Below, in pieces: positions 4,404 to 23,916 of a stretch of DNA of 33,293 nucleotides. The notes below the pieces were generated by a model. It did not search any database. It saw nothing but the letters and a program-made list of their open reading frames with translations, and was not told where the DNA came from. Location of the stretch: positions 1 through 33,293 of the forward strand of contig JBEKHC010000056.1 of NCBI GenBank assembly GCA_050012475.1. The letters run 5' to 3'. This stretch comes from Candidatus Velthaea sp. Its GTDB lineage: Bacteria; Vulcanimicrobiota; Vulcanimicrobiia; Vulcanimicrobiales; Vulcanimicrobiaceae. The translations under genes and the position numbers were made by a program. The stretch's first letter is position 1; every line of letters begins with the position of its first letter.

Positions 4404-4498
4404 GCGCGAACGGTCTTCGCGGCCAACTCGCCGGCCGCGGTCTGTGCCTGCGGCCTAGTCCGGGCTTGATACGTCATCGGTAGGCTCCTACGCAGCGG

Positions 4499-5440
4499 CT
4501 ACGCTTTGCCGGGATACGCGGTCGTTGAGAACTCGATGCCCTTGACGCACGCCACGAGCGTCTGGTTGACGGGCGTCGGTACGCCGTATTTTTCGCCCGA
4601 GCGAATGACCGCACCATTGATGAAGTCGATCTCGGTTGGCGTGTTGTTTTCGAGACTTTGCAGCATCGAGGCTTTGAATTCCGGCGGCAACCCTTGCGCT
4701 GCCTTGATCCACGATTGGCGCGGGTCGTCCGTCGACAACCTGACCCCGGCCGCCCTCGCGACCGCCATTCCCTCAGCGACGGCAGCCGTCGCGCAGGCTT
4801 CGAGGTCGGGGACGCGGTACAGGCCGCCGTACGTCAGGCGAGTGATCGCGCTCAGCGCTCCGGTCGCGACGTTGATCAGCAGCCTGTCCCACATGACGGC
4901 CATGATGTTGTCGCTGACGATCGTGAGCAGCTTGGCCCGATTGAATTCGTCGGCGACGGCTCGCACGCGGTCGGTGATCGAACCGTCGAGTTCGCCGATG
5001 ATCGTTTCTTTGCCGGCGGTCGTGGCACGGACATGCCCGGCGCCGAGAAACACCCCGCCGGCATACGTCTTTCCGCCCAAGACGCGTTCGCGCCCAACGA
5101 CGTCGGCAATGATGTCTTCATGACCCAGGCCATTTTGGAGCGACATGACCAGCGTGTTGCTGCCGATGATCGGCGCCGCGCTTTCGACGGCCTGACGGGT
5201 GTGAAATGATTTGACCAATACGATGACCAGATCGGCTACGCCGATACCGTCGCAACTGGTGCGGGCGTTGACCTTCACCGTCCGCTCGACGTCGCCGTCG
5301 CGCATGCGAAGCCCAATGGCGTTCATGACGTCGACGTGCTCCTTGTAACTGTCGATCAGCCACACGTCGGATCCGCCCTCCGTCAGCGTTCCGCCGATGG
5401 TACAGCCGGCGGCACCAGCGCCGACGACGCATACTTTCAT
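4499..5440 (-). CDS. panE: Ketopantoate reductase (PanE/ApbA) family protein, copy 1; catalytic Lys replaced by Arg
   Basis: GAGAAG, LVKS, LQNG, ASMLQ, TEIDFING; WDRLLIN where the family has WxKLxxN. Confidence 0.88.
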   Translation of the reverse strand: MKVCVVGAGAAGCTIGGTLTEGGSDVWLIDSYKEHVDVMNAIGLRMRDGDVERTVKVNARTSCDGIGVADLVIVLVKSFHTRQAVESAAPIIGSNTLVMSLQNGLGHEDIIADVVGRERVLGGKTYAGGVFLGAGHVRATTAGKETIIGELDGSITDRVRAVADEFNRAKLLTIVSDNIMAVMWDRLLINVATGALSAITRLTYGGLYRVPDLEACATAAVAEGMAVARAAGVRLSTDDPRQSWIKAAQGLPPEFKASMLQSLENNTPTEIDFINGAVIRSGEKYGVPTPVNQTLVACVKGIEFSTTAYPGKA

Positions 5441-5567
5441 GCGCTTTTCATCTCCATTGATAAATAGCAGCTGCGTTTGCGCGCGACAAAGACCAAAGCA
5501 TGTGCGGCGCCGGCCGCTCGCCGCCGGCTATCCCCGATCGAATTTCCGATGAGCGCGTCGCGGCCGT

Positions 5568-6818
5568 TCACGCGCGGGGGGTCTTTCCGGCCAACTCGGC
5601 GACGGCGGCCTCCGCGTACAGCACGCCGTCGTGCATCATCGCGTCGATGTCGGCCGGCGGATACCCGAGGCTCGAAGCAATCTCGCGATTGTGCTGGCCC
5701 ATCAGCGGTGCCACACTGCGCGGCGACGTGTCGCAATCGGAGAACCGGAACGGCAGATTCGGCAGCCTCACGCGGCCGAGCACGGGATGGTCCTGCTCGA
5801 CGATCATCCCGCGGGCGGCAACCTGCGGATCTGCCAAGACTTGATCGATACTCTGCACCAGCGCGGCCGGAACCCCCGCGGCATCGAGCGCGGCGATGCA
5901 CGCCTTGACCGACGGCTGCGCCATCGTCCAGTCGCTCACGTATTGGAGGGCGTGCACGCGATTGGCATTCCGGCTTGCCGGATCGAGGAATCGCGGGTCG
6001 CCCGCGAGTTCATCGCCGCCGATCAATCGCGCCAATCGCTTCCAAGCATCGTCGACCTGCGCGGCGATGACCAGGCATCCGTCGCGTGCCGCGAAGACGC
6101 CGTAGACGGTCGACTCGGGCAAATCGTGGCCCGTCTGCACCGGGATCTCCTTGCCGCCGCTGAGCGTATACGCTTGCACCGCGTAGTCGTGGATGGAGAT
6201 CATGCAGTCGTACAGCGCGATGTCGACCTGTTGGCCCTTGCCCGTGGTCGCCCGCCCGACGAGCGCCGCGCAGACCGCCGCAACGCCATGGACGCCGGCG
6301 TACATGTCGGCGATCGGGATGCGCAGCAGCGGCGGCATTTCGCCGGGTACGCCCAGCTGCGCCATCGCGCCGCTCTTTGCTTCGGCGATGAGGCCGAAGC
6401 CCGGACGCGCGGCGTCCGGTCCGGTGTGCCCGTACGCGGACACCGAGCAGTAGACGAGCCGCGGGTTCAACGTCGAGAGCTCTTCGTATCCGAGCCCGAG
6501 TTTGTCGAGCGCACCCGGCCGGTAATTTTCGACGAAGACGTCAGCGGTTTGGACGAGCTTATGCAGCATCTCCAGGCCGCGCGGGTCCTTGAGATTAACG
6601 CACAACCCTTGCTTGCCCATGTTCTGCTGCAAAAAATAGCCGCTTTGGCCGTTGATGAAATATTGATGCGCGCGTCCGGCGTCGCCGGCCGTCGGCCGTT
6701 CGACCTTGATGACGTCGGCCCCAAGCGCGGACAAGCAGCGCGAAAGAAACGGGCCGGCGAGAAAGTGACTGTAGTCGATGACTTTGATGCCCGTGAGGGG
6801 CAACGGCTGAGTCGCCAT
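5568..6818 (-). CDS. CaiB/BaiF (family III) CoA-transferase
   Basis: PLTGIKVIDYSHFLAGP, LGADVIKVE, ADVFVENYRPG, SAYGHTGP, catalytic Asp in IADMYAG, APLMGQHN. Start abuts the MaoC stop (TGA-ATG). Confidence 0.95.
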   Translation of the reverse strand: MATQPLPLTGIKVIDYSHFLAGPFLSRCLSALGADVIKVERPTAGDAGRAHQYFINGQSGYFLQQNMGKQGLCVNLKDPRGLEMLHKLVQTADVFVENYRPGALDKLGLGYEELSTLNPRLVYCSVSAYGHTGPDAARPGFGLIAEAKSGAMAQLGVPGEMPPLLRIPIADMYAGVHGVAAVCAALVGRATTGKGQQVDIALYDCMISIHDYAVQAYTLSGGKEIPVQTGHDLPESTVYGVFAARDGCLVIAAQVDDAWKRLARLIGGDELAGDPRFLDPASRNANRVHALQYVSDWTMAQPSVKACIAALDAAGVPAALVQSIDQVLADPQVAARGMIVEQDHPVLGRVRLPNLPFRFSDCDTSPRSVAPLMGQHNREIASSLGYPPADIDAMMHDGVLYAEAAVAELAGKTPRA

Positions 6819-7685: not shown

Positions 7686-7726
7686 CGGCGCTCTCCTTGC
7701 TGAAAACGACGGCTGCGAAGCGGCGG

Positions 7727-8668
7727 TTAGGCTTTGCCGGGATAGGCGGTGAGTGACAACTCGATTCCCTTGATGCCGGCGACCAGCGTTTGATTGACGG
7801 GCGTCGGCACGCCGCACTTCTCGCCCCAACGAACGACCGAACCGTTGATGAAATCGACCTCGGTGACCGCACCGTTTTCGAGGCTTTGGAGCATCGACGC
7901 CTTGAACTCCGGCGGCAGTCCCTGTGCGGCTTTGACCCATGCTTCGCGCGGCTCGTCGGACGATAGTTTGACCCCGGCGGCTTGCGCCACCGCGATCGCT
8001 TCAGCGACGGCAGCGGTCGCGCAGCGCTCGACTTCGGGAATGCTGTACAGACCGCCGTACGTCAGTCTCGTGATGCCGCTGAGCGCTCCGGTTGCCACAT
8101 TGACCAGCAGCTTGTCCCAGATGACGCCCATGATGTTGTCGCTGACCGTCGTCAAGAGCCCGGCGCGATTGAATTCTTTTGCCACCGCTTGCACGCGTGC
8201 GGTGAGCGATCCGTCGAGTTCGCCGATGATCGTCTCTTTGCCGCGCGTCGTGGCCCGCACGTGCCCCGGGCCGAGAAACACGCCGCCGGCATACGTCTTC
8301 CCCGCCAACACGTGCTCGCGACCGACGACATCGGCGATGATGTCCTCATGGCCCAGACCATTCTGGACCGACATCACCAGCGTGTCCTTGCCGATGATCG
8401 GCGCCGCTTCTTCGACCGCCTTGCGGGTGTGAAAGGATTTGACGAGCACGATGACAACATCGGCCGGCCCGATGCCGTCGCAGTTGGTGCGGGCCTTGAC
8501 CTTCACCGTCCGCTCGGTGTCGCCGTCGCGCATGCGAAGACCGATGGCGTTCATGACGTCGACGTGCTCCTTATAGCTGTCGATCAGCCAAACATCGGTT
8601 CCGCCCTCGGTCAGGGTGCCGCCGATCGTACAGCCTAACGCACCCGCGCCCACAACGCAGACTTTCAT
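7727..8668 (-). CDS. panE: Ketopantoate reductase (PanE/ApbA) family protein, copy 2 (motifs intact)
   Basis: GAGALG, VQNG, WDKLLVN, ASMLQ, TEVDFING; GGAG RBS. Confidence 0.9.
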   Translation of the reverse strand: MKVCVVGAGALGCTIGGTLTEGGTDVWLIDSYKEHVDVMNAIGLRMRDGDTERTVKVKARTNCDGIGPADVVIVLVKSFHTRKAVEEAAPIIGKDTLVMSVQNGLGHEDIIADVVGREHVLAGKTYAGGVFLGPGHVRATTRGKETIIGELDGSLTARVQAVAKEFNRAGLLTTVSDNIMGVIWDKLLVNVATGALSGITRLTYGGLYSIPEVERCATAAVAEAIAVAQAAGVKLSSDEPREAWVKAAQGLPPEFKASMLQSLENGAVTEVDFINGSVVRWGEKCGVPTPVNQTLVAGIKGIELSLTAYPGKA

Positions 8669-8916
8669 GCGCTCTCGATCTCCATTTCAGCAGACCTTGC
8701 GCTTGCAAGGGAGACATACGGTAGCTACGTGTTTCTTGTTGAACGCACCCGCACGGCGCGCATTGTTTTACGACATACTTCTTGCGCCGACCGGACAGAT
8801 TCGGGCGCCGAATCGATGCTGTTGATGGAGTGCGAAAGCGCTGCCATCAGTAGGCTTGCGCGAAGCTCTTATCGAGAAACCGCGATCGCAATCGCTTTCG
8901 CGTTGCGCTTTCTTTA

Positions 8917-8943
8917 GAGAAGTTGCCGCCGAGAAGTTGCCGC
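8917..8943 (+). repeat. 13-bp direct repeat (GAGAAGTTGCCGC x2)
   Basis: Identical copies at 8917-8929 and 8931-8943, right after the ADH stop codon. Confidence 0.6.
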
Positions 8944-8945
8944 GC

Positions 8946-10076
8946 CTACGAGGCGAACTCGATCACCTGGCGGACGGCTTTGGCTTCGTGCAGCAGGTCG
9001 AAGGCCTCGTTGATGTCATCGATTTTCAGCTTGGCGCTCATGAGTCGATCCACCGGCAGGCGCCCTGCGCGATAGAGTGCGATGTACCGCGGGATATCGC
9101 GCGTCGGCACGCAGGTGCCGATGTAGCTGCCCTTGAGCGTCCGTTCCTCCGCGACGAGCTGGACGAGCGGCACGGCCAACGTGGCAGCCGGCGGCGGCAA
9201 CCCGGCGGTAATCGTCGTGCCGCCGCGGCGTGTGATTTTCCAGGCCAGTTCCATCGCGCGTGCCGAACCGGCCATCTCGAACGCGAAGTCGACGCCGCCG
9301 CCGCTGACTTTTTTCACTTGTTCCGCCGCGTCGGGGTCGCGCGCATTCACCGTGTGGCTGGCCCCGAGTTCCCGTGCAAGGCGAAGCTTGTCGTCCGAAA
9401 GGTCGATGGCGACCACTTGCGGCGCACCGCACGCGATCGCGCCAAGGACGGAAGCAAGTCCGACGCCGCCGAGACCGATGACGGCCGCCGACTGGCCGGG
9501 CCGAAGCTGGCCCGTGTTCACCACGGCACCCACCCCAGTCAAGACCGCGCAGCCGAAGAGCGCCGCTTCGTCCAGGGGCAAATCCTTATCGACCTTGACC
9601 ACCGACCGGCGCGACACCACGGCGAACTCGGCGAAGCCCGATACGCCTAGATGGTGGTTCACGTCCGTCCCGTCACGGTGCAGCCGGCGGAAACCGGACA
9701 GCAGCGTGCCGGCGCCGTTGGCGGCGGCACCCGGTTCGCACAACGCGGGCCGGCCTTCGGCACACGGCAGGCACTGCCCGCAGCTCGGCATGAACACCAT
9801 GACGACATGATCGCCGACAGCCAAATCGGTGACGTCCTCGCCCAACGATTCCACGATACCCGCGGACTCGTGTCCCAGCGCCATCGGCATCGGCCGCGGC
9901 CGCACACCATTGATCACGGACAAGTCGGAGTGGCACAGGCCGGCGGCGACGATCCTGACCAGCAGTTCCCCGCGGCCGGGCGGATCGAGATCGATCGTTT
10001 GAATGTGCAGCGGCGTGCTGGCGGCATAGGGCGGTTCGGCGTCCATGCGATCGAGGACGGCTGCTCGTATTTTCAT
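8946..10076 (-). CDS. Zinc-dependent alcohol dehydrogenase (MDR, class III/liver-ADH-like)
   Basis: GLCHSD, LGHE, structural-Zn CGQCLPCAEGRPALC, LFGCAVLTG, GLGGVG; acidic residue in AIDLS suggests NAD preference. Confidence 0.95.
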   Translation of the reverse strand: MKIRAAVLDRMDAEPPYAASTPLHIQTIDLDPPGRGELLVRIVAAGLCHSDLSVINGVRPRPMPMALGHESAGIVESLGEDVTDLAVGDHVVMVFMPSCGQCLPCAEGRPALCEPGAAANGAGTLLSGFRRLHRDGTDVNHHLGVSGFAEFAVVSRRSVVKVDKDLPLDEAALFGCAVLTGVGAVVNTGQLRPGQSAAVIGLGGVGLASVLGAIACGAPQVVAIDLSDDKLRLARELGASHTVNARDPDAAEQVKKVSGGGVDFAFEMAGSARAMELAWKITRRGGTTITAGLPPPAATLAVPLVQLVAEERTLKGSYIGTCVPTRDIPRYIALYRAGRLPVDRLMSAKLKIDDINEAFDLLHEAKAVRQVIEFAS

Positions 10077-10089
10077 ACTTCAATCTCTC

Positions 10090-11742
10090 CTATGCAAGCG
10101 CCGACGCGTCCATACGCGAGCGCAATTCATTCACCAGCACGCGCGTATTTTCGCTGTAATCGATCGGCACCGCGACCAGGTGCACGCCGCCGCCTTTGAA
10201 CGCGGCTTCCAGCGCAGGGATGAAATCCTCGGTCGCGCCGACGCGGGTGCCTTTGGCGCCGTAGCTCTCGGCATACTTGACGAAGTCCGGGTTGGCGAAG
10301 GTCAGACCGAAATCCGGGAAGTTGTCCACCGCCTGTTTCCAGCGAATCATGCCGTAGGCGCTGTCGTCGAGAATGAGCACCACGAGGTTCAGCTTCAGCC
10401 GAACTGCCGTCTCGATCTCCTGACTGTTCATCATGAAACCGCCGTCGCCGCACACGGCCATCACCCGCCGATCCGGGTGAATCATCGCCGCCATCATCGC
10501 CGACGGCAGTCCGGCGCCCATCGTCGCCAGCGCATTGTCGAGCAAAAGCGTATTGGCGGTGTGGGTGCGATAGTTCCGGGCGAACCAAATCTTGTACATG
10601 CCGTTGTCGAGCGCTACGATCCCGTCTTCGGGAATCACTTGACGTACATCGTGCACGATGCGCTGCGGCGTCGGCGGCCAGCGGTCCTCGGTGTTGCGAT
10701 CGGCGATCCGGCTCAGGATGCCTTGGCGCAGCGGCAGCAACGCGCCGGCATTGTGGAGCCGCCCTTCGAGCCGATCGGCCAGCAGTTCCAGACTGAGACT
10801 GACATCGCCCACGACCTCGGCATGCGGGAAGTAGACTTGATCGACGGTGGCCGGCGTATAGCTGACGTGGATGACGTGCGGACCGTCCGGACCCATGATG
10901 AACGGCGGCTTCTCGATGGTGTCGTGACCGATGGCGATGATGAGATCCGCGGCGTCCACCGCTTCGTGCACGTAGTCGCGCTCGGACAGCGCGGCCGTGC
11001 CCATGTAAAGGTGCGCGCCGCTGGCGACCGTGCCTTTCCCCATCTGGGTCGTGAAGAACGGAATTTGCATCCGGCGCACAAAGCCCGCGAGCCCGGACGT
11101 GGAACGCGGGCGCGATGTTGCGGCGCCAAGCATGATCAGCGGGCGCTTTGCCTCCAGAATCATGTCGGCCGCACGGTTGAGCGCGTCGCGGTGCGCGACG
11201 GGCGTTTCGATCGGGTGAGCCCGAATCGGCTGCACGTCCGGAGCGGCCTCACGGGCGACGTCTTCGGGCAACTCCAGTAAGACCGGACCGGGGCGTTCTT
11301 GCATGGCGATGCGGAACGCGTCGCGCACGACCGCCGGAACGCTGGGGGCACTGGCGATTTGGCGCGACAGTTTGGTCAGCGGCTTGAACGCGCTCACCAC
11401 ATCGACGAGTTGGAACCGCGCCTGGCGGCTGGTATGGATCGCCTTCTGCCCGGTGATCATCACCATCGGCATGGCGCCCAGCAGGGCGTACGCAGCGCCC
11501 GTGGTGAGATTCAGCGCGCCCGGGCCAAGCGTAGTCAGGCACACGCCCGGCCTTCCGGTGAGCCGGCCGAAGGTCGCGGCCATGAACGCCGCCGCCTGCT
11601 CGTGCCGGGTCACGATCAATTTGATGGAGGAGCCGCGCAGGCTCTCGACCACGTCGAGGTTCTCTTCGCCGGGGATTCCGAAGATGCTGTCGACACCCTC
11701 GTTTTCGAGCGCCGCGACGAGAAGGTCGGATCCTTTTGGCAT
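10090..11742 (-). CDS. ThDP-dependent enzyme, acetolactate-synthase-large-subunit-like (GEENL type; candidate 2-oxoacid/2-oxoglutarate decarboxylase)
   Basis: IFGIPGEENL, RHEQAAAFMA, LGPGALN, GPVLLELPEDV, GDGGFMMNSQE ThDP motif; RBS AAGGAAG before MPKGSD; no regulatory small subunit adjacent. Confidence 0.9.
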   Translation of the reverse strand: MPKGSDLLVAALENEGVDSIFGIPGEENLDVVESLRGSSIKLIVTRHEQAAAFMAATFGRLTGRPGVCLTTLGPGALNLTTGAAYALLGAMPMVMITGQKAIHTSRQARFQLVDVVSAFKPLTKLSRQIASAPSVPAVVRDAFRIAMQERPGPVLLELPEDVAREAAPDVQPIRAHPIETPVAHRDALNRAADMILEAKRPLIMLGAATSRPRSTSGLAGFVRRMQIPFFTTQMGKGTVASGAHLYMGTAALSERDYVHEAVDAADLIIAIGHDTIEKPPFIMGPDGPHVIHVSYTPATVDQVYFPHAEVVGDVSLSLELLADRLEGRLHNAGALLPLRQGILSRIADRNTEDRWPPTPQRIVHDVRQVIPEDGIVALDNGMYKIWFARNYRTHTANTLLLDNALATMGAGLPSAMMAAMIHPDRRVMAVCGDGGFMMNSQEIETAVRLKLNLVVLILDDSAYGMIRWKQAVDNFPDFGLTFANPDFVKYAESYGAKGTRVGATEDFIPALEAAFKGGGVHLVAVPIDYSENTRVLVNELRSRMDASALA

Positions 11743-12120
11743 GTGTCTTCCTTTTTCAAACGCCTGGGCGCTACGCCGCGTGGGGCATCCTCGAATCGCC
11801 GATCGGCCTCGTTCTGGCGCGCCGTGCGCCGCTTCCCGAACGCTCAAACATTGGTTGTGAGATTAGCACCAAACCTGCTCCGCTGCGAGCCGCCGATGCA
11901 AGAACTTTCTTACTGTCAGCGGCCGATCCTTACCACTCCCTACTTGATGCCAGCGCAAGGACAGCCGAGAGGGTGCGCGTCGATTTCGTTCGCTACGCAA
12001 GCCCGCGCGGCGCATCAAGCAGACGGCCCAGCCGCGCTCTCGGCGCGCGGGGAAGGCCTGCGCTCAGCGTGCTTCGCGATTCGCCGTGCGCCGCTCTCAG
12101 CTTTCCAAAGATACCAATTG

Positions 12121-12136
12121 AACTATCCGGATAGTT
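12121..12136. promoter_or_regulatory. Perfect 16-bp palindrome, candidate repressor operator in the divergent region
   Basis: AACTATCCGGATAGTT; overlaps a minus-strand TTGACG(12143-12148)-17 bp-TAGTTC promoter-like arrangement (weak -10). Confidence 0.65.
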
Positions 12137-12441
12137 TAACTTCGTCAATTTAGTACCGGAGCGCACACTCCTTCGGTGACGCGGGCTACACTCTTGAAAC
12201 CCGAGAGGCCGTCCCCTGAAGTACCACGCGCTGGAAATCCCGTTCCGCACGAGCAAAAGCTCGCCCGTTCAGCACCCGACCAGCGCCTATCACCGCGCCG
12301 GACGCTTCGAGTCGAACGCCATATGTCGACTAGGCGCGATCGTTCGCGGCCGGCTTTCCGCACGTTCACCAGCTCTTCGCCGGGTCTCCACATTCCCGGC
12401 CTACGCTATATGCGTATAAATTTAGCTCAAGGGGATTCTAC

Positions 12442-14013
12442 GTGGCACTCAAGACGCCGGAACAGTACGAAGAAAGTCTGCGCAAACTCAACTTCAAGCT
12501 CTATCTGCAGGGTGAATTAGTGGGCAATCCGGTCGATCACCCGATGATCCGGCCGTCGATGAACTCCGTCAAAGCGACCTACGAACTGGCTGGGGATCCG
12601 CAGTACGAAACGCTGATGACGGCCACGTCGCACCTCACGGGTAAAAAAATCAACCGCTTCACACACCTGCACCAAAGCACGCAAGATTTGGTGAACAAGG
12701 TAAAGATGCAGCGGCTGCTCGGTCAGAAGACCGGCTCTTGCTTCCAGCGCTGCGTCGGCATGGACGCCTGCAATGCGCTCGACACCACCACCTTTGAGAT
12801 GGATCAGAAACTGGGGACCGACTATCACAAGCGCTTCGAGGCGTTTTTGTTGAAGGTCCAGGAAGAAGATCTGGTGGTCGACGGGGCGATGACCGACGTC
12901 AAAGGCGATCGCTCCTTGGCGCCGAGCAAACAGGCCGATCCCGACATGTTCCTGCGGATCGTTGAAAAGCGGGCCGACGGGATCGTCGTTCGCGGCGCAA
13001 AAGCTCACCAGACCGGAGCGCTCAATGCCCACCAGATCGTCGTGATGCCGACGATCGCGATGGGACCCGAAGACGCCGACTACGCCGTCGCATTCTGCAT
13101 CCCGGCCGACACGGAAGGCATCGTGTACATTTACGGCCGCCAGTCATGCGACACGCGCAAACTCGAGGGCGGCGACATCGACGTCGGAAACAAGAACTTC
13201 GGCGGCCACGAAGCGCTCATGATCTTCGAAGACGTCTTCATTCCGACGGCCAACGTGTTCATGTGCGGTGAAATCGAGTTCACCGGGATGCTCGTCGAGC
13301 GCTTCGCCGGCTATCACCGTCAGAGCTACGGCGGCTGCAAGTCCGGCGTCGGCGACGTGCTGATCGGCGCGGCCGCCTTGGCGGCAGACTATAACGGTGC
13401 GTCCAAAGCGTCGCACATCAAAGACAAGCTCATCGAGATGACCCATCTCAACGAGACGCTCTATGGTTGCGGGATCGCGTGCTCGGCGGAAGGCACGAAG
13501 ATGGCGTCCGGCACGTATCAGATCGATCTGCTGCTGGCAAACGTGTGCAAACAGAACGTCACGCGTTTCCCGTACGAGATCGCCCGCTTAGCCGAAGACA
13601 TCGCCGGGGGCGTCATGGTCACGATGCCGTCCGAGAAGGACTTGCAAAATCCGCAAACGGCAAAATACGTCAAGAAATATCTGCGCGGCGTGGCGTCGGT
13701 GCCGACCGAGACTCGGATGCGCGTGCTGCGTCTGATCGAGAACATCACGCTGGGATCCTCGGCCGTCGGCTACCGGACCGAGTCCATGCACGGCGCCGGT
13801 TCCCCGCAAGCGCAGCGAATCATGATCGCGCGCCAGGGCAACCTCGCGAAGAAAAAAGCACTCGCCCGGGTCATCGCTTGCATCCCCGATCCGGAGCGCA
13901 CCACGCCGCCGCCGGCCACCAACGGCAGCGCCAAGAACGGCACCGCCGCGAACGGCAGCGCAAAGAACGGCAGCGCGAAGGCTGACGCACAGAAGGCAAC
14001 CGTCGCGAAGTAA
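12442..14013 (+). CDS. abfD: 4-hydroxybutyryl-CoA dehydratase / vinylacetyl-CoA delta-isomerase ([4Fe-4S], FAD)
   Basis: CFQRCVGMDA and YHRQSYGGCK supply the 3 Cys + His cluster ligands; AMTDVKGDR, GAKAHQTG, ESMHGAGSPQAQR; GTG start with AAGGGG RBS. Confidence 0.95.
   Translation: MALKTPEQYEESLRKLNFKLYLQGELVGNPVDHPMIRPSMNSVKATYELAGDPQYETLMTATSHLTGKKINRFTHLHQSTQDLVNKVKMQRLLGQKTGSCFQRCVGMDACNALDTTTFEMDQKLGTDYHKRFEAFLLKVQEEDLVVDGAMTDVKGDRSLAPSKQADPDMFLRIVEKRADGIVVRGAKAHQTGALNAHQIVVMPTIAMGPEDADYAVAFCIPADTEGIVYIYGRQSCDTRKLEGGDIDVGNKNFGGHEALMIFEDVFIPTANVFMCGEIEFTGMLVERFAGYHRQSYGGCKSGVGDVLIGAAALAADYNGASKASHIKDKLIEMTHLNETLYGCGIACSAEGTKMASGTYQIDLLLANVCKQNVTRFPYEIARLAEDIAGGVMVTMPSEKDLQNPQTAKYVKKYLRGVASVPTETRMRVLRLIENITLGSSAVGYRTESMHGAGSPQAQRIMIARQGNLAKKKALARVIACIPDPERTTPPPATNGSAKNGTAANGSAKNGSAKADAQKATVAK
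13921..13980 (+). repeat. Four in-frame 15-bp tandem repeats (NGSAK/NGTAA/NGSAK/NGSAK) in the AbfD C-terminal tail
   Basis: AACGGCAGCGCCAAG AACGGCACCGCCGCG AACGGCAGCGCAAAG AACGGCAGCGCGAAG. Confidence 0.85.
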
Positions 14014-14032
14014 GTTGGGCGCGAGCCGACCC

Positions 14033-14068
14033 AAGGCGGCCGGGGCACTGCTCCGGCCGCCTTCGTTT
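14033..14068 (+). terminator. Probable intrinsic terminator after abfD
   Basis: AAGGCGGCCGGGGC-ACT-GCTCCGGCCGCCTT 14-bp stem (one G-U) followed by CGTTT. Confidence 0.65.
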
Positions 14069-14391
14069 GCGGCAGCCCGCGGACCCGAGTTCGGCCAACA
14101 GTCACGTTTTGCGGCTCCGCCGCACGATCCGGCCCAAGCCTTCATCGTGTCGCCCCAACGTGTGGTGCGGAATCGACTCGATGCAGCCGCCGGCGCCTCG
14201 GGCAGCGGCCGTCGACGCATCCTCCGATAGACGCCAGCGAAGGACGTTCTTGCAGAAGGGAGGCTCCGCAAGACCGGAAAGGGTAGCTTAAGGCAAGCGC
14301 GTTCGAAGCCTGATGACGCTGCATGTCATAGCTATTTTTCCACTGTAACGGAGTCGGAAAGCGTTGTCTTTTCGCTCGATCTCGTCGGAGA

Positions 14392-15690
14392 GTGAGTAGC
14401 CGCATCGTGAATGACTGGAGATCCGCGCATAAGAGCAAGCTGGTGTCGGCAGAGACCGCGCTCGAGAGCGTGAAATCCGGAAACCGCGTCGTGATCGCGC
14501 ACGCGTGCGGCGAACCCCCGACGCTCGTCGAGGCCCTCGTCGCGCGGGCGCCTGAACTCCGCGACGTCGAAGTCGTGCACATGGTGACGATGGGGCCGTC
14601 GAAATATGCCCAACCCGGAATGGAACAGAGTTTTCGCCACAATACGCTCTTCGTGGGCGCGACGACACGCAAGGCGATACACGAGGGCAGAGCCGATTTC
14701 ACCCCGTGTTATTTCTCGCAAGTCCCGCGGCTGTTCAGGCAAAACTATTTGCCGGTCGACGTGCTGCTGTTTCAAGTGACGCCGCCCGATGCAGACGGAT
14801 TCTGCAGTTTTGGCGTTTCGGCCGATTACACGCAACCGGCTGCCGAGTGCGCCCGCATCGTGATCGCCCAAATGAACCGCTTCTTGCCGCGCACGTTCGG
14901 CGCGAAGATCTCGCTCGACGCGTTGACGTACATCGTCGAGAAGGATGAGCCGATTATCGAGTTGCAGCCGCCCAAGATCGGAGATGTCGAGCGCCGAATC
15001 GGCGAGAACGTTGCCGCCCTCGTTCCCGACGGCGCGACGCTGCAGCTCGGCATCGGCGCCATCCCCGACGCGGTCCTCACGTTTCTGACCCATAAAAAAG
15101 ATCTAGGAATACATTCCGAAATGTTTTCCGACGGAGTCGTCGCCTTGGCCCAAGCCGGTGTGATCAACAACCGCCGCAAGACGATCCACACCGGGAAGTT
15201 CACGGCGACCTTCTTGATGGGCACGCGCAAGCTGTACGATTTCGTGCACGACAATCCGGATGTCGAGTTGTTCCCGGTGGACTACGTGAATAACCCGTAC
15301 GTGGTCGGTCAGTACGAGAACATGGTGGCGATCAATTCGGCACTCCAGGTCGATCTGACGGGCCAAGTGAACGCCGAAGCGATCGGCTTCATGCAGTACA
15401 GCGCTGTGGGCGGCCAAGTGGACTTCGAACGCGGCGCCAGCCGATCCCCCGGAGGGAAATCGGTCATCGCCCTGCCGTCAACCGCGGCCGGCGGAAAGAT
15501 CTCACGTATTTGCCGGCAGTTGGACGAGGGGGCGCCCGTCTCGACTTCCCGTTACGATATCCATTTCGTCGCGACGGAGTACGGCGTCGCGGACTTGCGA
15601 GGCAAAACGCTGCGCCAGCGTGCCGATGCCCTCATTGCGATCAGTCACCCGGACTTTCGCGATATGCTGCGGGCACCGCGTCCGACCTGA
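14392..15690 (+). CDS. cat2: 4-hydroxybutyrate CoA-transferase (acetyl-CoA hydrolase/transferase family, Cat2/AbfT-like); start may be GTG14407
   Basis: VVIAHACGEPP, TLQLGIGAIPDAV, GIHSEM (catalytic Glu), TFLMGT, GGQVDF, TEYGVADLRGK; adjacent to abfD. Confidence 0.85.
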   Translation: MSSRIVNDWRSAHKSKLVSAETALESVKSGNRVVIAHACGEPPTLVEALVARAPELRDVEVVHMVTMGPSKYAQPGMEQSFRHNTLFVGATTRKAIHEGRADFTPCYFSQVPRLFRQNYLPVDVLLFQVTPPDADGFCSFGVSADYTQPAAECARIVIAQMNRFLPRTFGAKISLDALTYIVEKDEPIIELQPPKIGDVERRIGENVAALVPDGATLQLGIGAIPDAVLTFLTHKKDLGIHSEMFSDGVVALAQAGVINNRRKTIHTGKFTATFLMGTRKLYDFVHDNPDVELFPVDYVNNPYVVGQYENMVAINSALQVDLTGQVNAEAIGFMQYSAVGGQVDFERGASRSPGGKSVIALPSTAAGGKISRICRQLDEGAPVSTSRYDIHFVATEYGVADLRGKTLRQRADALIAISHPDFRDMLRAPRPT

Positions 15691-15702
15691 CCGGCGACAG
15701 GC

Positions 15703-16491
15703 TCAGTAGAGTCCCGGGGTCCCGCCGCCATCCACTGCAATCGCGGTTCCCTGAATATGCCGAGCGCGATCGTCGGCCAGGAAAAGGGCCAGCTCCGCAA
15801 CATCTTCGGGCTTGCCCAGACGACGAATGCCATCTTTCGCGATCGCATCACGGCGTGCTTGCTCCGGCGTTATGCCCATCGCCGTAGCACGCTGCTCAAA
15901 CAGCGTCTGGACCCGTTCGGTCTCCGTCAGTCCCGGCAATATGGCATTGACGTTCACGTCGTCGCGCTTGCCGAGGCCGGATAAACCCTTCGTAAAGTTT
16001 GCCATTGCGGCGTTCACCGAACCGCCGACGAGGAACTCGGGATCGGGCGTCCGCGCAGCGCCGCCGATGATGTTGATGACGGCACCATGTGAGGTTCGCA
16101 GCAGTGGCCAAAACAGCCGGCAAAGCCGCACGCACGAATAAAACTTTAGCGCGAATCCGTCCTGCCATTCTTCGTCCGGCTGGGCAAGGAAGGCGCCGGC
16201 TCGCGTCGCACCCGCGGAGTTCACGAGCACGTCGCATCGGCCAAAACGTTCGCTTACGACGCGATAGACATTGTCACAGCCAGCGAGCGTTCTTAGGTCC
16301 GCGCTGACGGTGATCGGCGTGGGTGCGCCTGTCGCTTCGATCCGGCGCCCGGCATCGGCAAGCCTCGCCTCCGATGAAGCGGCGATGACCGTTTGCGCAC
16401 AGGCTCGCGCAAAGGCCCGCGCGATCGCAAGACCGATGCCGCGGCTCGCGCCGCTCACGACCACGATTTTCCCCTCGAACGAACTTGTCAT
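15703..16491 (-). CDS. Atypical short-chain dehydrogenase/reductase (no YxxxK)
   Basis: SGASRGIG, LVNSAG, VNAILPG, RLGKPEDVA, AVDGG; catalytic region reads FLVGGSVNAA. Start uncertain (ORF open to 16524). Confidence 0.88.
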   Translation of the reverse strand: MTSSFEGKIVVVSGASRGIGLAIARAFARACAQTVIAASSEARLADAGRRIEATGAPTPITVSADLRTLAGCDNVYRVVSERFGRCDVLVNSAGATRAGAFLAQPDEEWQDGFALKFYSCVRLCRLFWPLLRTSHGAVINIIGGAARTPDPEFLVGGSVNAAMANFTKGLSGLGKRDDVNVNAILPGLTETERVQTLFEQRATAMGITPEQARRDAIAKDGIRRLGKPEDVAELALFLADDRARHIQGTAIAVDGGGTPGLY

Positions 16492-16643
16492 CTCCAGGCG
16501 AGTATTTTTCGAGGGAGAGAACAATCACTGCACGCCGGGCCACGACTCCGTCGCGGTGCACCCTTGCGTCTCGCGTTCCGATCGCGCGCATGATTCTGCC
16601 GCCCCGAAAACGAGACGGCAGCATCGATGAGCGCAGGATGAGC

Positions 16644-16700
16644 CTAGGGATGCGCTGATTTCGTCCTGGCGAGGAGCATAGCGGCGAAGCGCATCCCTAG
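16644..16700. mobile_element. 57-bp MITE-like element C with perfect 13-bp terminal inverted repeats
   Basis: CTAGGGATGCGCT...AGCGCATCCCTAG; internal 35 bp (16655-16689) is 34/35 identical to 23821-23855; right CTAG contains the porin TAG stop. Confidence 0.7.
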
Positions 16701-18067
16701 AACGTCGCCTTGATTTGCAGACCGTAGATCCAGGCGTTGCCGTACTGTTTCTGCGTGAATGCGCCCGGATTCATGAGGTATTGCAAGTCCGGCCGCACGA
16801 TGACCGTCGGCGAGATGCCGATGCCGTAACTGAGTTCGGCGACTTGTTCGCCGGGTGCCAAATCGAGACCGGGCTCGCTCTTGATGGCGATGAGGCGTGG
16901 GTTGACGGCGGCCCGGACGTAGCCGAGGTTGAGGTTGTCGCGATCGCGGCCCGGGAACGTGCCCTGTAAAACGAGACCGGCATCGAGATAGTACTTGATG
17001 AGCGCGGTTTGCGGATCGGAATTCGATCCCTGTGCGAAGACCCAGAGGCCGCCCGGCCGCGACGGTTCGCGCACGACCATTTGGCTGGCAAGGACGTAGT
17101 AGCCCCAGCGCCCGCTATCGGTCAGGTGCTCCGTCGCGATGTCAGCGACGTGCGAGCTATCGTAGTAGCCGCCGATCTTGAACTCTCCGGGAAGCTGACC
17201 GGGATTGTGGCCCGGCAGCCAGGCAAACTCTACGGGATAGATCGTGCCCGTTGCACCGTGCAAGCTCAGGTCGAAGCCATTCGCCTTGAGCGCGACGAGC
17301 GGGTTGGTTTCGAACGCGCCGGTTTCAGCATACGTCGTCGAGCTCGTGTTGTCGCGGACGCGAATACCGAGTCTCGCATTGGGATAATCCGCCCAGCCGC
17401 TGTCGTTGGGCAAGGATTGCGTATGACCGCAGAAGCCGCTGTTCATGAAGTTGCAGAGCAGCACCGTCAGTCCGAAATCATTTCCCCAGGCCCAATAGCC
17501 GAGTTTGACGTTGTACTTCTTCTTGGCGAGGCTCTGGTCGACGGTCAACTCGCCCAAGCGGAAGTTCTGACCGACGCCGTAGATCTCTTGAACGGCCAGC
17601 TTGTTCGAGAAGTTGTTGGCGGACAGACTGCCGCCGGCGCGATCGTTCAAGGTAAGGTGGAATGTGGCGCCCTCGAATTTGAGCAGTTTGCCCAGATCGA
17701 GATCGGTGCCGAAGCGGATCTGCTGCGCGTATGCCGCGCCGCGATGTCTGCCGCCCGTCGTATTGACGGCCGACTCGGAAATGTAATCGAGTCGCAGATC
17801 GACGCCCTTATTGTGCAATTGCTTACGCCAGCCGCCGCCGGCGAGCGGCGTCGGTGAAGGCAGCGGACTCGTCCCCGGGGCCGGAGTCGCACCGGCCGGC
17901 GGCGGCCCTTCCGTCGGCGCCGTCGCCGGCGCCGGAGCCGCAGACGGCGCGACCGTCGGAGTCGCGGGCGCGGGCGTGGGCGCTTGGGCCAAGGCCGAAC
18001 TCGAGGACGCCCACAGAGCAATTCCGGCAATCAACAAAATGTTGTGCCACGGCCGCAAACACGGCAT
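16697..18067 (-). CDS. oprB: OprB-family carbohydrate-selective porin with signal peptide and Pro/Ala/Thr-rich linker
   Basis: Signal peptide ...SSALAQ, GTDLDLGKL, AVQEIYGVGQNFRL, CNFMNSGFCG, PGEFKIG, RPDLQYLMNPG, C-terminal Phe. Confidence 0.92.
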   Translation of the reverse strand: MPCLRPWHNILLIAGIALWASSSSALAQAPTPAPATPTVAPSAAPAPATAPTEGPPPAGATPAPGTSPLPSPTPLAGGGWRKQLHNKGVDLRLDYISESAVNTTGGRHRGAAYAQQIRFGTDLDLGKLLKFEGATFHLTLNDRAGGSLSANNFSNKLAVQEIYGVGQNFRLGELTVDQSLAKKKYNVKLGYWAWGNDFGLTVLLCNFMNSGFCGHTQSLPNDSGWADYPNARLGIRVRDNTSSTTYAETGAFETNPLVALKANGFDLSLHGATGTIYPVEFAWLPGHNPGQLPGEFKIGGYYDSSHVADIATEHLTDSGRWGYYVLASQMVVREPSRPGGLWVFAQGSNSDPQTALIKYYLDAGLVLQGTFPGRDRDNLNLGYVRAAVNPRLIAIKSEPGLDLAPGEQVAELSYGIGISPTVIVRPDLQYLMNPGAFTQKQYGNAWIYGLQIKATF

Positions 18068-18094
18068 ACGTCAAAACTCCCTTAGTCTCTATCA

Positions 18095-18160
18095 AACTAC
18101 CGGACTGGTTAGTTTAGTACAGGCCAGGTATATGATGGTAGAGAAATACAAGCTCGTCAA
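18095..18160 (-). promoter_or_regulatory. Sigma70-type promoter of oprB with downstream operator-like pseudo-palindrome
   Basis: Minus strand TTGACG (18155-18160), 17 bp, CATCAT (18132-18137); AACTACCGGACTGGTT at 18095-18110 lies between predicted TSS and RBS. Confidence 0.55.
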
Positions 18161-18537
18161 GGGCTCAAGAAACTTTTGTGCGGCACAACATGCGCCTTCG
18201 CCTACGCGGCCGGCACCGCTCGCGCTCGAACTCGAGCTGCCGCCGCACGTCCCCAGATCGCCGACGGGCTCCTCATTGCGAGCGACAAGAACGCGATAAG
18301 GTTACCCTAAGCCGGCGTCCCCTGTGTCGTCGCCGGCGGCCGCCGCCGGCGCAATTGCCCACGCGACAAACGTTGCAGTCCACACCGCGTAACCGACCAA
18401 CGCGGCCGCAGCCAGTGGAAAACATTCTAATTAGCAGTGAGACTCGTTATCTCAAAGCACGCCCGTTGCCGACGGCACGTTTCACAAGCCGAAATCGCCG
18501 CCATCGAACGGCCCGACCCGGCTTGGCTCTCCGGGCG

Positions 18538-19299
18538 TCACCGAGCCTTCCGCGGGCGTCCGTTCTGCGCAGCGCGAGCCCGGGGTGCCGCAGCCTTCGG
18601 CGTTCCTTCCAGATAGCCGACGATCGAATCGGCGAACATCCGCCGATGGCGAGCCCGTACCGCCGGAGCCAAAAGATCGCGGCCGAACAACGTGCCGAAC
18701 GTATGATGATTGGAGATCCGATAGAAACACGGTGCGATGATGAGCAGATGCAGGTCGATCGCATCGATCGCCGTGTGAAAGATTCCTTCGCGGCGGCCGC
18801 GCTTGAGGATTGCCGCGAGCATTTCGATGACGGAGACATTTAATTTTTGGATCGTTTCCGACTTCGCGACGTGAACGCCGTCGTGAATGTTTTCGATGCT
18901 CACGAGCCGCGCGAGCTCGGGGTGCGCTTCCTCGTAGTCGAACTGATACTGCACGAGGCGGCGGATGGCTTCCCGAGGCGGCAATCGCACCAAATCGAGC
19001 TCCCGCTCCGCGGCACGCATCTGGGCGTACGCCCGCTCGAGAACCGCCAGGTACAGCCCTTCTTTGCTGCTGAAATAATAATAGATCATTCGCTTGGAGG
19101 TTCGGGTACGCGCCGCGATCGTATCGACCCGGGCACCGGCGAGGCCGTCTCGCGCGAACTCTTCGGTCGCGACCTCCAGGATATCATGCTGCGTTCGCAC
19201 TGGGTCGTGCTTGCGTTCGAGCTCCAGGCGGCTGGCGGCTGCGCGCGGCGCGCCGCTGGTTTTTTTCGGGGTGGAAACGGGTTTTCTCAGGGCCATCAT
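18538..19299 (-). CDS. TetR/AcrR family transcriptional regulator (NicS/RutR-like C-terminus); start approximate
   Basis: ILEVATEEFARDGLAGARVDTIAARTRTSKRMIYYYFSSKEGLY HTH; RLVSIENIH, CFYRISNHHTFGTLFG C-domain. Confidence 0.93.
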   Translation of the reverse strand: MMALRKPVSTPKKTSGAPRAAASRLELERKHDPVRTQHDILEVATEEFARDGLAGARVDTIAARTRTSKRMIYYYFSSKEGLYLAVLERAYAQMRAAERELDLVRLPPREAIRRLVQYQFDYEEAHPELARLVSIENIHDGVHVAKSETIQKLNVSVIEMLAAILKRGRREGIFHTAIDAIDLHLLIIAPCFYRISNHHTFGTLFGRDLLAPAVRARHRRMFADSIVGYLEGTPKAAAPRARAAQNGRPRKAR

Positions 19300-19454
19300 C
19301 CTTGTTGGCAGCCGCGATTCCAGCATCGACGGAAGTCGCGTTTCATTTGCGCCGATCTCGTTGCGTTGCAGCAAACGTACACACCAGATGGGACAGGCGC
19401 AGGCTCTTCTTCGCCGATCGGCTACGGCCGCCCGCCTGCCTGGGCGAACCACCC

Positions 19455-20888
19455 ATGAACGCCCGCCACCCGAGCCTCGACCCGCTGGTTCTGCTGGTTG
19501 CCAGCGCGTTTTTCATGGAGTTCCTCGACGGAACGATCATCGTGACCGCGCTGCCGGCGATGTCGGTGAGCTTCGCAACCTCCGCCGTTTCGCTGCAGGT
19601 CGGCATCACGGCCTACCTCCTCACCGTCGCAGTCTTCATCCTCCCGGGCGGCTGGGCGGCGGAGCGCTTCGGTGCCCGAACCGTGTTCACGGCTGCAGTC
19701 GCGACGTTCACCGCGGGTTCCGTACTGTGCGGTCTCGCCGGCTCCACGGCGAGTTTCGTCGCTGCCCGCGTGCTGCAGGGCGTGGGCGGCGCCATGATGG
19801 TGCCGGTTGGACGGCTCGCGGTCCTGCGCAGCACGCCCAAACCTCAGCTCATGGACGCCATCGCCCTGCTGACCTGGCCGGCGTTAAGCGCGCCGCTGCT
19901 CGGGCCTCCGCTGGGCGGGTTCATCGCTCAACATCTGTCGTGGCGCCTGATCTTCTTCATCAACTTGCCGCTGGGTCTGGCCGGCGTCGCTCTGTCGCTG
20001 TGGCTGGTGCCGCGGCTGCCGGCGCTGGAGCGGCGACGGTTCGACTGGCGCGGCTTCGGGGCGGGTGCGGCGGCGCTGGTTTGCGCGGTCTGGGCGCTCG
20101 ATGTCATCGCAGACGGGACGGCGCCCTGGCCGTTTGTCGCGCTGCTGACGGGCGGCGCCGCGGCATCGGCAGTCCTGCTGCAGCGGCGGGTTCGGTCCTG
20201 CGCCGAGCCGCTGTTCGATCCGGCCCCGCTGCGCGTCCCGACGTATCGCTTCGTCATCGTCGTGGGCACCGCGATGCGGGTCCTCATCAGCGCTGTGCCG
20301 TTTCTCTTGCCGCTGATGTTCCAACTCGGTTTCGGCCTCGATCCTTTTACCGCCGGCCTGCTCGTAATCGCGCTCTTCGCGGGAAATCTCGGGATCAAAC
20401 CGCTGACGTCTCCGCTGCTCAAACGGTTCGGCTTTCGCACCGTGCTGGCCGCGAACGCTTTCGCGCAGGCGGCGACGATGCTGGGTTGCGCCGTCCTGGC
20501 AACTACGGCTGCCGTGCCGGTCGTCGTCCTGTTGATCGCCTCGGGCGCCTCGCGCTCGCTGCAATTCACGGCGCTGGGCACCCTCGCTTTTGCCGACGTG
20601 CCCCAGCCGGTCATGAATTCGGCCAATACCGTTTTTTCGGTGGCGTTTCAACTCGCGCTCGGAGTCGGTGTCGCGGTCGGCGCCGCGCTGCTGCGCGCAG
20701 CAGGTCTGGTCCTGCGCGTGCCGGCGGCTCCAAACCTGGCGGTCTTTCACGGCGCGTTCGGCGTCCTGTCGGTCGTGATGGCGCTGACGGGGCTGGCGGC
20801 GCTGCGGCTCGCCGGCGACGCGGGCGCCGACGTTTCGGGCCATTTGAGGGCGCGCTCAGCCGACGGTTCACTCGTCGAAGCCGAATAA
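19455..20888 (+). CDS. MFS transporter, DHA2 (EmrB/QacA/HsrA-like)
   Basis: FMEFLDGTII, GWAAERFGAR motif A, RVLQGVGGAMMVPVGRL, GPPLGG, WRLIFFINLPLG; divergent from tetR. Confidence 0.92.
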   Translation: MNARHPSLDPLVLLVASAFFMEFLDGTIIVTALPAMSVSFATSAVSLQVGITAYLLTVAVFILPGGWAAERFGARTVFTAAVATFTAGSVLCGLAGSTASFVAARVLQGVGGAMMVPVGRLAVLRSTPKPQLMDAIALLTWPALSAPLLGPPLGGFIAQHLSWRLIFFINLPLGLAGVALSLWLVPRLPALERRRFDWRGFGAGAAALVCAVWALDVIADGTAPWPFVALLTGGAAASAVLLQRRVRSCAEPLFDPAPLRVPTYRFVIVVGTAMRVLISAVPFLLPLMFQLGFGLDPFTAGLLVIALFAGNLGIKPLTSPLLKRFGFRTVLAANAFAQAATMLGCAVLATTAAVPVVVLLIASGASRSLQFTALGTLAFADVPQPVMNSANTVFSVAFQLALGVGVAVGAALLRAAGLVLRVPAAPNLAVFHGAFGVLSVVMALTGLAALRLAGDAGADVSGHLRARSADGSLVEAE

Positions 20889-23617: not shown

Positions 23618-23813
23618 CTAGTGTGGTGTCTCAGAAGTTCGCATACAAAATCTCACTCGTCTTTTCGCCCGGCTCATCGTCGTTCTTCGGTCACGAAGCT
23701 GCGGCTTCGCCGGGTGCACCGAGCGAAGCCGAGGGCACCCGTCTCATCACTCCTCGATCCGAACGAAAATCCTTCGCGATCTTTTGCATGGAACTTCTGA
23801 GACGCCACACTAG
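23618..23813. mobile_element. 196-bp MITE-like element A, CTAG-bounded, 23-bp terminal inverted repeats
   Basis: CTAGTGTGGTGTCTCAGAAGTTC ... GAACTTCTGAGACGCCACACTAG (1 mismatch), nested internal hairpins, no credible ORF. Confidence 0.8.
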
Positions 23814-23916
23814 TGTTGGTCTGATTTCGTCCTGGCGAGGAGCCTAGCGGCGAAGTTTGCTTCAGCAAATCAGCCGCGCAGCGACGACGTCCAGGGCGGA
23901 ATCAGACCATCCCTAA
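23810..23916. mobile_element. 107-bp MITE-like element B sharing a CTAG with element A
   Basis: Arms TGGTCTGATTTCGTCCTGG / CCAGGGCGGAATCAGACCA (two G-U), inner GCGGC..TTTGC-TTCA-GCAAA..GCCGC; core repeated at 16655-16689. Confidence 0.72.

Follow-up and report, generated by a model that had tools for sequence, protein, structure and literature searches.

The window analyzed here is the whole of contig JBEKHC010000056.1 (C56; 33,293 bp) from the 5.36 Mb, 94% complete genome of Candidatus Velthaea sp. (GCA_050012475.1), and the locus under study comprises two divergent gene pairs within it. On the minus strand, a thiamine diphosphate-dependent enzyme (ThDP enzyme; 10090-11742, 550 aa) is followed by a zinc-dependent alcohol dehydrogenase (Zn-ADH; 8946-10076, 376 aa), with 13 bp between the stop of the former and the start of the latter; on the plus strand, abfD (12442-14013, 523 aa) precedes cat2/abfT (14392-15690, with a likely true start at the GTG at 14407). 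All four are uninterrupted open reading frames, and they lie as the first-pass annotation had placed them, the two pairs sharing a gap of 699 bp (11743-12441). The ATG of the ThDP gene, which has a purine-rich ribosome binding site upstream, was taken as its start because the relatives begin at that methionine; a longer, TTG-started frame (to 11847) was discarded for the same reason. The genes abfD and cat2 are adjacent and on the same strand, but form a looser pair than had been described, with 378 bp and a strong hairpin between them.

This G+C-rich hairpin (14033-14063, plus strand) is located just 3' of the abfD stop codon, and has 15-nt arms that are 93% complementary and a short U-tail. 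Its stability (z -2.55) was equalled in 3 of 200 shuffles, and it is a possible terminator or stabilizer; the terminator scan gave no call at this position. The divergent intergenic region contains a near-perfect palindrome of 22 bp (12118-12139, 11-nt arms, 91% complementary), a candidate regulator site, of which a 16-base stretch has no second copy in the genome with up to two mismatches; perfect 16-bp palindromes occur genome-wide about 0.05 times per 700 bp. No sigma-70 consensus site was found in the 699-bp region; the sigma-70 promoter and terminator scans gave results at chance level.

The juxtaposition of the two pairs is real. When four runs holding the same region were compared, one independent 2018 peat DNA contig (run X5) covered 11491-13110 with a single difference, reaching from inside the ThDP gene into abfD and thus bridging both pairs. 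Contig C56 belongs to the host: its nuo genes are native, with NuoH counterparts of 93-95% identity in all three (3 of 3) genomes of the genus, and an assembly chimera is ruled out by this host-type NuoH and the independent contig across the junction. The stretch 8500-16600 is present in 20 of the 21 runs listed, from 15 studies and mostly from peat. Two RNA runs from two studies (X17 and X19) contain near-identical contigs over abfD, both starting at 12469-12471 and thereby weakly suggesting a 5' end close to the abfD start, and one near-identical RNA contig lies over the ThDP 5' end and the intergenic region. None of the near-identical RNA pieces listed lies over the Zn-ADH or cat2 genes, gaps that prove nothing, as the RNA evidence consists of assembled contigs from which neither expression level nor strand can be read.

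Enzymes encoded by the two pairs

The ThDP enzyme displays the three thiamine pyrophosphate domains (N, M and C) of Pfam and passes NF006187/PRK08322 (820 bits, cut-off 509), a family labelled 'acetolactate synthase large subunit', while scoring below the cut-offs of the acetolactate synthase models, AlsS and biosynthetic (AHAS) alike: NF006378 (437<510), TIGR02418 (402<551) and TIGR00118 (343<538). Its proposed likeness to the cyanobacterial 2-oxoglutarate (2-OG) decarboxylase OgdA was examined against cyanobacterial-type relatives retrieved by motif from PMC10418658 (120 loci, 75 full-length proteins; an aldehyde dehydrogenase is present at 66 of the 120 loci). The shared N-terminus on which that proposal drew was confirmed, the PGEE motif being present in 75/75 sequences, with an identity to the window enzyme of 40-46% (median 43%). 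Nine MaKGD residues (E50, K386, A408, M410, D435, D462, Y465, K471 and Y531) are retained with a constant offset of 2 (E48, K384, A406, M408, D433, D460, Y463, K469 and Y529), and are invariant in 104 of 104 branch members (Y463 in 103 of 104); the two 2-OG-docking lysines do not occur together in any of the three other ThDP enzymes of the host.

In a FastTree phylogeny of 114 rows, which included 10 of the 75 cyanobacterial-type sequences and from which identical sequences were dropped, the window enzyme forms a group (SH-like 99) with two proteins from Rhodopila, to which it is up to 89% identical, among Acetobacteraceae members of the operon described below, and its branch is separate from the cyanobacteria (SH-like 100). 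Assayed KGDs share 77-98% identity, and the window enzyme lies outside their cyanobacterial clade. The DNA of the whole ThDP-ADH block is 81% identical to that of Rhodopila locus L165, and a search for NF006187 in 150 genomes from the class of the host gave no match. The description as OgdA-like is supported by context and residues, but close orthology is not: the family and the catalytic and docking residues are shared with OgdA/KGD, and the pocket residues, the clade placement and the ssaD operon are not. We infer that the ThDP enzyme is a 2-OG decarboxylase from an unassayed sister branch of OgdA. A PRK08322 gene of the other (~40%) branch, followed by a different Zn-ADH (32%), was also observed in a Syntrophobacteraceae genome (L386:9105-12105), a decarboxylase-ADH pairing that is possibly independent in origin.

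The Zn-ADH (Pfam ADH_N/ADH_zinc_N) is a liver/class III-like zinc-dependent medium-chain dehydrogenase/reductase (Zn-MDR), with liver and class III ADHs as nearest solved structures. It is 82-87% identical to Acetobacteraceae/Rhodospirillales proteins, and was not found in three same-genus genomes. The zinc ligands C48/H69/C176 and C99/C102/C105/C113 are invariant in 20 of 20 relatives, and so are the NAD-type D225, R59 and H142. The latter two occupy the positions that Leu57 and Phe140 have in liver ADH, which we take to line the pocket, and would fit a carboxylate substrate. The protein passes no NCBIfam cut-off, and hence no curated 4-hydroxybutyrate (4HB) dehydrogenase model. A link to the crenarchaeal SSA reductase, to which the first-pass annotation had pointed, was not found, the sequence of that enzyme being unavailable for comparison. 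The neighborhoods of its relatives tie it to genes that make succinic semialdehyde (SSA) and to genes that use SSA or 4HB: the relatives precede phaE-phaC-CoA transferase or gabD, and in 2 of 80 loci (L235, over the cut-off, and L239) the Zn-ADH alone stands before a gene of the GabD cluster. Gene context and residues thus support the function suggested in the first-pass annotation, and the enzyme is predicted to be an SSA reductase/4HB dehydrogenase.

For AbfD, the best solved relative is the Clostridium aminobutyricum enzyme 1u8v (E 6e-228), and the [4Fe-4S] ligands C100, C104, H292 and C299 (Cys-x3-Cys, His, Cys pattern) are all kept. Cat2 is a Family I CoA transferase whose best solved relatives are the 4HB CoA-transferases 3eh7 (E 5e-150), 9vag, 3d3u and 3gk7; its conserved E243, presumably the catalytic Glu, sits in a SEMFSDG motif. 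Residues and nearest solved relatives support the identities given earlier to both genes, abfD as an anaerobe-type 4-hydroxybutyryl-CoA dehydratase/vinylacetyl-CoA isomerase and cat2, which is also linked to abfD, as a 4HB CoA-transferase. The gene order abfD-cat2 was found in 38 of 80 abfD loci. AbfD is 79-82% identical to proteins from Sporomusa, Desulfitobacterium and Syntrophobacteraceae, and the nearest genome relative of the plus-strand pair is Sporomusaceae locus L069 (AbfD 82%, Cat2 76%), followed by Desulfitobacterium and Syntrophobacteraceae; abfD was not found in 40 relatives of the host nor in 300 genomes of the phylum searched. In the anaerobe relatives L069 and L083, abfD-cat2 is accompanied by a permease, a sigma-54 regulator, two small genes and thl/bcd/etf/hbd (names read from sequence, without profile scan), and no neighbors of this type (permease, sigma-54 regulator, NifU-like, thl/bcd/etf) are present at the window locus.

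A NifU-like gene and a small Cys-rich (CGGC) gene lie between abfD and cat2 in L069, L083, L073 and L024, where they perhaps serve assembly of the AbfD cluster; no remnants of either were found in the abfD-cat2 spacer of the window. The window AbfD carries a 40-aa low-complexity C-terminal tail with NGSAK-like repeats (13890-14013), which is missing from five other aligned AbfD-like sequences. Two more abfD-like genes are present in the host, one in the region C5:3912-15331 (53%), which keeps the Cys/His pattern and is located about 8 kb from a class III phaE-phaC, and one at C12:63638-65143 (36%), in which the Cys pattern is altered.

A polyhydroxyalkanoate-linked operon around relatives of the minus-strand pair

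Clustering of the genes around 80 ThDP and 80 ADH relatives revealed a recurring operon with the order (transporter, acnA, icd), ThDP enzyme, Zn- or Fe-ADH, phaE, phaC, CoA transferase, hydrolase, (gabD), which links the pair to polyhydroxyalkanoate (PHA) synthesis. Its PhaC passes the class III cut-off, its PhaE matches PF09712 and its GabD passes TIGR01780. The ThDP gene is directly upstream in 28 of the 80 ADH loci, with phaC downstream in 20, a CoA transferase in 24 and both in 19, and 13 of the 80 ThDP loci have ADH, phaC and CoA transferase downstream (4 Zn, 9 Fe). After merging four Zn cases that lie on the same contigs as ADH loci, 28 distinct loci carry the full set; they are not 28 independent events, since many are kin (L164 is nearly identical to L166 and L168). 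They span Acetobacteraceae, Bradyrhizobium, Methylobacterium and Caballeronia (Alpha- and Betaproteobacteria) as well as Actinomycetota. As a control, phaC was found near 0/80 abfD loci and 0/80 Cat2 loci. On two annotated plasmids without phaEC, the ThDP-ADH pair still clusters with a CoA transferase and a phasin.

The ADH slot is occupied by a Zn-MDR or by an unrelated Fe-ADH, and the CoA transferase slot by a YdiF-type or a Cat2-type enzyme, usually by the broad-range YdiF/propionate type. Supply of 2-OG is suggested by the genes upstream: Icd-like genes in 19 loci and AcnA in 8 (some loci being duplicated), a monomeric isocitrate dehydrogenase (IDH) over its cut-off together with a citrate symporter in Mycobacterium sp. 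141, where sucCD lies downstream, and directly upstream in L089, L103 and L184 a PRK10406 transporter, which we take to be KgtP. Genes for AraD or KdgD, from pentose or sugar-acid routes, are found upstream in other operon loci. The gene after the ThDP gene encodes an aldehyde dehydrogenase in 19 of 80 loci, and GabD over the cut-off comes after the ThDP gene in L103 and is the last gene of the Methylobacterium operon.

The sequences point to the ThDP-ADH pair of the window being a fragment of this PHA-linked operon. In most carriers the product of the pair is probably a 4HB polyester and not crotonyl-CoA, because the genes that normally accompany it encode a class III PHA synthase and a CoA transferase. 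We modestly favor the view that wild-type bacteria of soil and peat, and others associated with plants (among them Acetobacteraceae, Bradyrhizobium, Methylobacterium, Caballeronia and Mycobacterium), possess a dedicated operon for de novo synthesis of 4HB polyester from citrate, pentoses or 2-OG, of which the window would be a rewired AbfD/Cat2 derivative that ferments 2-OG to crotonyl-CoA. Neither the natural PHA-linked operon nor the four-gene locus was found described in the literature searched, which covered few subscription papers.

Operon carriers are found among L084-L243 (e.g. L143, L089, L189 and L202), and plasmid copies are L502, L503 and L475. The YdiF-type transferase of 650 aa has a C-terminal extension of about 135 aa without Pfam match. 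Locus L164 is from a metagenome-assembled genome labelled Janthinobacterium lividum, and its operon ThDP protein is nearly identical to those of the Acetobacteraceae loci L166 and L168, which may possibly reflect mis-binning or recent transfer.

Proposed route and alternative explanations

The host looks like a versatile microaerophile. Its genome carries nifH with nif/fix-like neighbors, NiFe hydrogenases, RuBisCO, a Kgd/SucA and several PHA synthases (C43, C14, C67 and C6), enzymes of the pyruvate:ferredoxin oxidoreductase (PFOR) type, and possible sinks for crotonyl-CoA and 4HB-CoA: thiolases, hbd, bcd, etf, two ackA genes and crotonase-like genes (below cut-off). PHA synthases are encoded by phaE-phaC (class III) on C5 and by four class I/II-like matches on C14 and C45. 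For oxidation of 2-OG, the genome encodes a fused actinobacterial-type Kgd/SucA, a KorA-type enzyme and SucCD, and SucA is also present in 33 of 33 operon carriers tested. A role as a filler of a gap in the tricarboxylic acid cycle is rejected on these grounds, and since SucA is kept in all 33 carriers, the pathway would be a branch off the cycle and not its repair.

From the genes, their motifs, their neighborhoods and their linkage, the following substrates, direction, coupling and conditions are proposed. The ThDP enzyme would irreversibly convert 2-OG to SSA and CO2, and the Zn-ADH would reduce SSA with NADH to 4HB. By family function and strong homology, Cat2 would transfer CoA from acetyl-CoA or butyryl-CoA onto 4HB, and AbfD, with all its cluster ligands kept, would convert 4HB-CoA to crotonyl-CoA. 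Cat2 and AbfD would stand in for the CoA transferase and phaE-phaC missing from the parent operon. Crotonyl-CoA could yield acetyl-CoA and acetate (redox-neutral, with ATP via AckA), butyryl-CoA or poly(3-hydroxybutyrate) (PHB), and 4HB-CoA could enter PHA directly via the several synthases of the host. If crotonyl-CoA were oxidized to two acetyl-CoA, the net reaction would be 2-OG to CO2, 2 acetate and 1 ATP without net NADH; the route would be an electron sink if it ended in butyryl-CoA, PHB or 4HB-containing PHA. Dehydration of the AbfD type is described as reversible and oxygen-sensitive (PMC13288912). This sensitivity, together with the nitrogenase, hydrogenase and PFOR-type genes of the host, makes low oxygen the most likely setting for operation of the module. 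In rhizobia, 2-OG dehydrogenase is throttled by NADH under these conditions.

We consider the chemistry proposed for the ThDP-ADH pair to be likely, and functional coupling of the two halves to be reasonably probable. Because the halves differ in their nearest relatives (Rhodopila/Acetobacteraceae and Sporomusaceae) and the arrangement was not seen elsewhere, coupling is deduced not from conservation but from complementarity: the minus-strand pair is without CoA transferase and phaEC, and abfD-cat2 is without a 4HB supply. With a probability of roughly 52%, the locus is accordingly read as a mosaic of two acquired blocks that would form a one-way drain of 2-OG to crotonyl-CoA and/or PHA.

A number of findings weigh against this reading. 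The recurrence of the four-gene neighborhood in other genomes, to which the first-pass annotation had looked, was not borne out: the two pairs occur together in 0/240 genome loci and 0/80 metagenome loci (0/320), no close pairing of the halves was found in 80 whole genomes, and a conserved four-gene arrangement is rejected for the lineages searched. An AbfD-like gene (37-59%) is present in only 4 of 40 genomes with the pair or its operon, one of them Bradyrhizobium forestalis (L116), in which a 59% abfD-like gene lies on a different contig from the ThDP and Fe-ADH genes. Conversely, a PRK08322 gene is present in 2 of 40 abfD genomes, both from Syntrophobacteraceae with abfD-cat2, where it belongs to the other branch and lies away from abfD. 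Within the window the halves are divergent, have no adjacent regulator and are marked by the hairpin between abfD and cat2, and they sit in an accessory island crowded with other acquired genes to which they are unrelated. As for the enzymes, MaKGD V382, A384, H385 and L467 correspond to N, M, Y and M, and Gln254 is apparently not kept. The MaKGD docking contacts come from a model and not from a crystal, and the two docking lysines are absent from the MaKGD mutants noted in PMC10418658; no assay was found for any member of the window branch, which is recognizable by a DNGMYK motif. None of the operon partners is present at 43 of the 80 ADH loci or with 44 distinct ThDP sequences, the common Icd-like gene is under its family cut-off (449 vs 510), and the Fe-ADH is under that for 4HB dehydrogenase (252 vs 500). 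The absences from the host genome, finally, are provisional at 94% completeness.

The same findings would be explained if the two pairs, each with the chemistry given above, were chance neighbors working independently in the island, for instance with abfD and cat2 acting on 4HB or another acyl-CoA from elsewhere and the ThDP-ADH pair being a remnant that serves 4HB export or sees little use. The lack of a second lineage with the arrangement, the different nearest relatives, the mixed gene content of an island that lies beside nuo and not at the syntenic site of genomes G001 and G002, the hairpin 3' of abfD and the two further abfD-like genes of the host all suit such an accident. The two blocks nevertheless share exactly one metabolite, each being without its usual partners, none of the four frames is broken, their codon use resembles that of the host, and searches of the 94% complete genome revealed no close 4HB dehydrogenase or other 4HB source, nor GabD, GabT or glutamate decarboxylase, over the family cut-offs; we regard independence as unlikely, though it deserves weight. 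Alternatively, the pair and Cat2 might mainly feed 4HB-CoA to the host's PHA synthases, with a reversible AbfD balancing 4HB-CoA against crotonyl- and 3-hydroxybutyryl-CoA or itself feeding 4HB-CoA. This agrees with the tie of the pair to phaE-phaC and phasins in relatives, with the synthases of the host, including the phaE-phaC near the second abfD-like gene, and with an archaeal 4HB-CoA dehydratase that ran from crotonyl-CoA to 4HB-CoA for PHA in C. necator (PMC13288912). The window locus, however, has no synthase gene, and the host class III PhaC is just 43% identical to the operon type. The dehydratase equilibrium presumably lies on the crotonyl-CoA side as well, and we find a primary role in PHA synthesis distinctly unlikely.

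It is also conceivable, if improbable, that the ThDP enzyme uses another 2-oxoacid, being an acetolactate synthase or a decarboxylase of oxaloacetate (leading to 3-hydroxypropionate) or of 2-oxoadipate (leading to 5-hydroxyvalerate), so that the pair would not feed AbfD. The database label and the best solved relatives are those of acetolactate synthases, the four pocket positions are unlike MaKGD, the operon CoA transferase is usually of the broad-range type, and the Icd-like gene also scores with homoisocitrate dehydrogenases. An acetoin/butanediol pathway is not supported, however, as no acetolactate decarboxylase gene (alsD) was found in the host genome and neither AlsD nor a small-subunit/ACT domain among 52 (of 72 listed) immediate neighbors of partner-less loci, and an ilvB-like gene is present separately in the host, on C45. 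Around the relatives, a true IDH, citrate and PRK10406 transporters, GabD and SucCD indicate a C5 to C4 conversion.

An acyl-CoA synthetase gene is the one island gene, of those tested, that occupies the same site in G001. Elsewhere in the window, genes for a CaiB CoA-transferase, a MaoC dehydratase and a VOC protein lie between two panE/ApbA-like genes (4483-5458 and 7711-8686) with 83% protein identity, and a 78-bp repeat is found at 4366-4443 and 5534-5611; the whole looks like a duplicated catabolic cassette. A methylmalonyl-CoA decarboxylase over the NF008506 cut-off (1084-1857) is located upstream of a Gfo/aroQ/aroE-like block. Short repeats resembling repetitive extragenic palindromes (16644-16689 and 23618-23931) recur on many further contigs of the genome, and 16697-21698 (minus strand) encodes an OprB porin, a TetR-type regulator, a major facilitator superfamily transporter and an amidohydrolase, the last three named from sequence.

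Relation to known systems and significance

Each single step is already known from the cyanobacterial bypass, clostridial 4HB fermentation or engineered strains (PMC5160925, PMC7147479, PMC8659255). With the OgdA/KGD enzymes of the bypass (Synechococcus PCC 7002 A2770/A2771, Synechocystis Sll1981 and Microcystis MAE_06010; PMC10418658, PMC5160925), the window ThDP enzyme shares PRK08322, a length of about 550 aa, PGEE, the nine key residues and, in prediction, conversion of 2-OG to SSA and CO2. SSA would be reduced by the ADH in the window, whereas SsaD oxidizes it to succinate in cyanobacteria. Compared with clostridial 4-aminobutyrate/succinate fermentation (AbfD, AbfT/Cat2, AbfH/4HbD, and SucD or GabT), the window has close orthologs of AbfD and Cat2 with intact motifs and in the same order, but neither Fe-dependent AbfH, SucD/Cat1 nor 4-aminobutyrate transaminase at the locus, with none over cut-off in the genome. 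Unlike in the clostridial route, SSA would come from a ThDP decarboxylase and be reduced by a zinc enzyme, in a host that also carries aerobic respiratory and Calvin-cycle genes. The operon of the relatives has the same four chemical steps (ThDP enzyme, ADH, CoA transferase, PhaEC) as the OgdA-4HbD-Cat2/OrfZ-PhaC(E) route that was engineered into Synechococcus 7002 and Halomonas to make P(3HB-co-4HB) (PMC7147479, PMC8659255), and differs in being natural and in its sister-branch ThDP enzyme, Zn-MDR or Fe-ADH and YdiF-type transferase with C-terminal extension; the window in turn has AbfD and no phaEC.

The interest of the locus is carried mainly by the parent operon. According to two reviews, wild-type bacteria form 4HB-containing PHA almost only from 4HB-related precursors, and de novo synthesis needs engineered genes, with rare unexplained exceptions including Hydrogenophaga pseudoflava on L-arabinose; an operon with all four engineered steps would, if true, change this precursor-only view. 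It is also a candidate gene type behind the 2-OG decarboxylase activity reported in Bradyrhizobium, as mentioned in PMC10418658. If the assignments are correct, three large protein groups that now bear misleading labels ('acetolactate synthase', 'zinc-dependent ADH family' and 'CoA-transferase') would gain a function, and new parts would become available for production of poly-4-hydroxybutyrate, a medically approved polymer, among them a Zn-reductase replacing the clostridial iron enzyme. The operon occurs in cultured strains, among them Methylobacterium hispanicum DSM 16372, Bradyrhizobium canariense BTA-1, Caballeronia pedi LMG 29323, Paraburkholderia sp. FT54 and Skermanella mucosa, and is hence directly testable. 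The four-gene form of the window, found so far in one lineage, would give a nitrogen-fixing bacterium of peat a new way to dispose of 2-OG at low oxygen.

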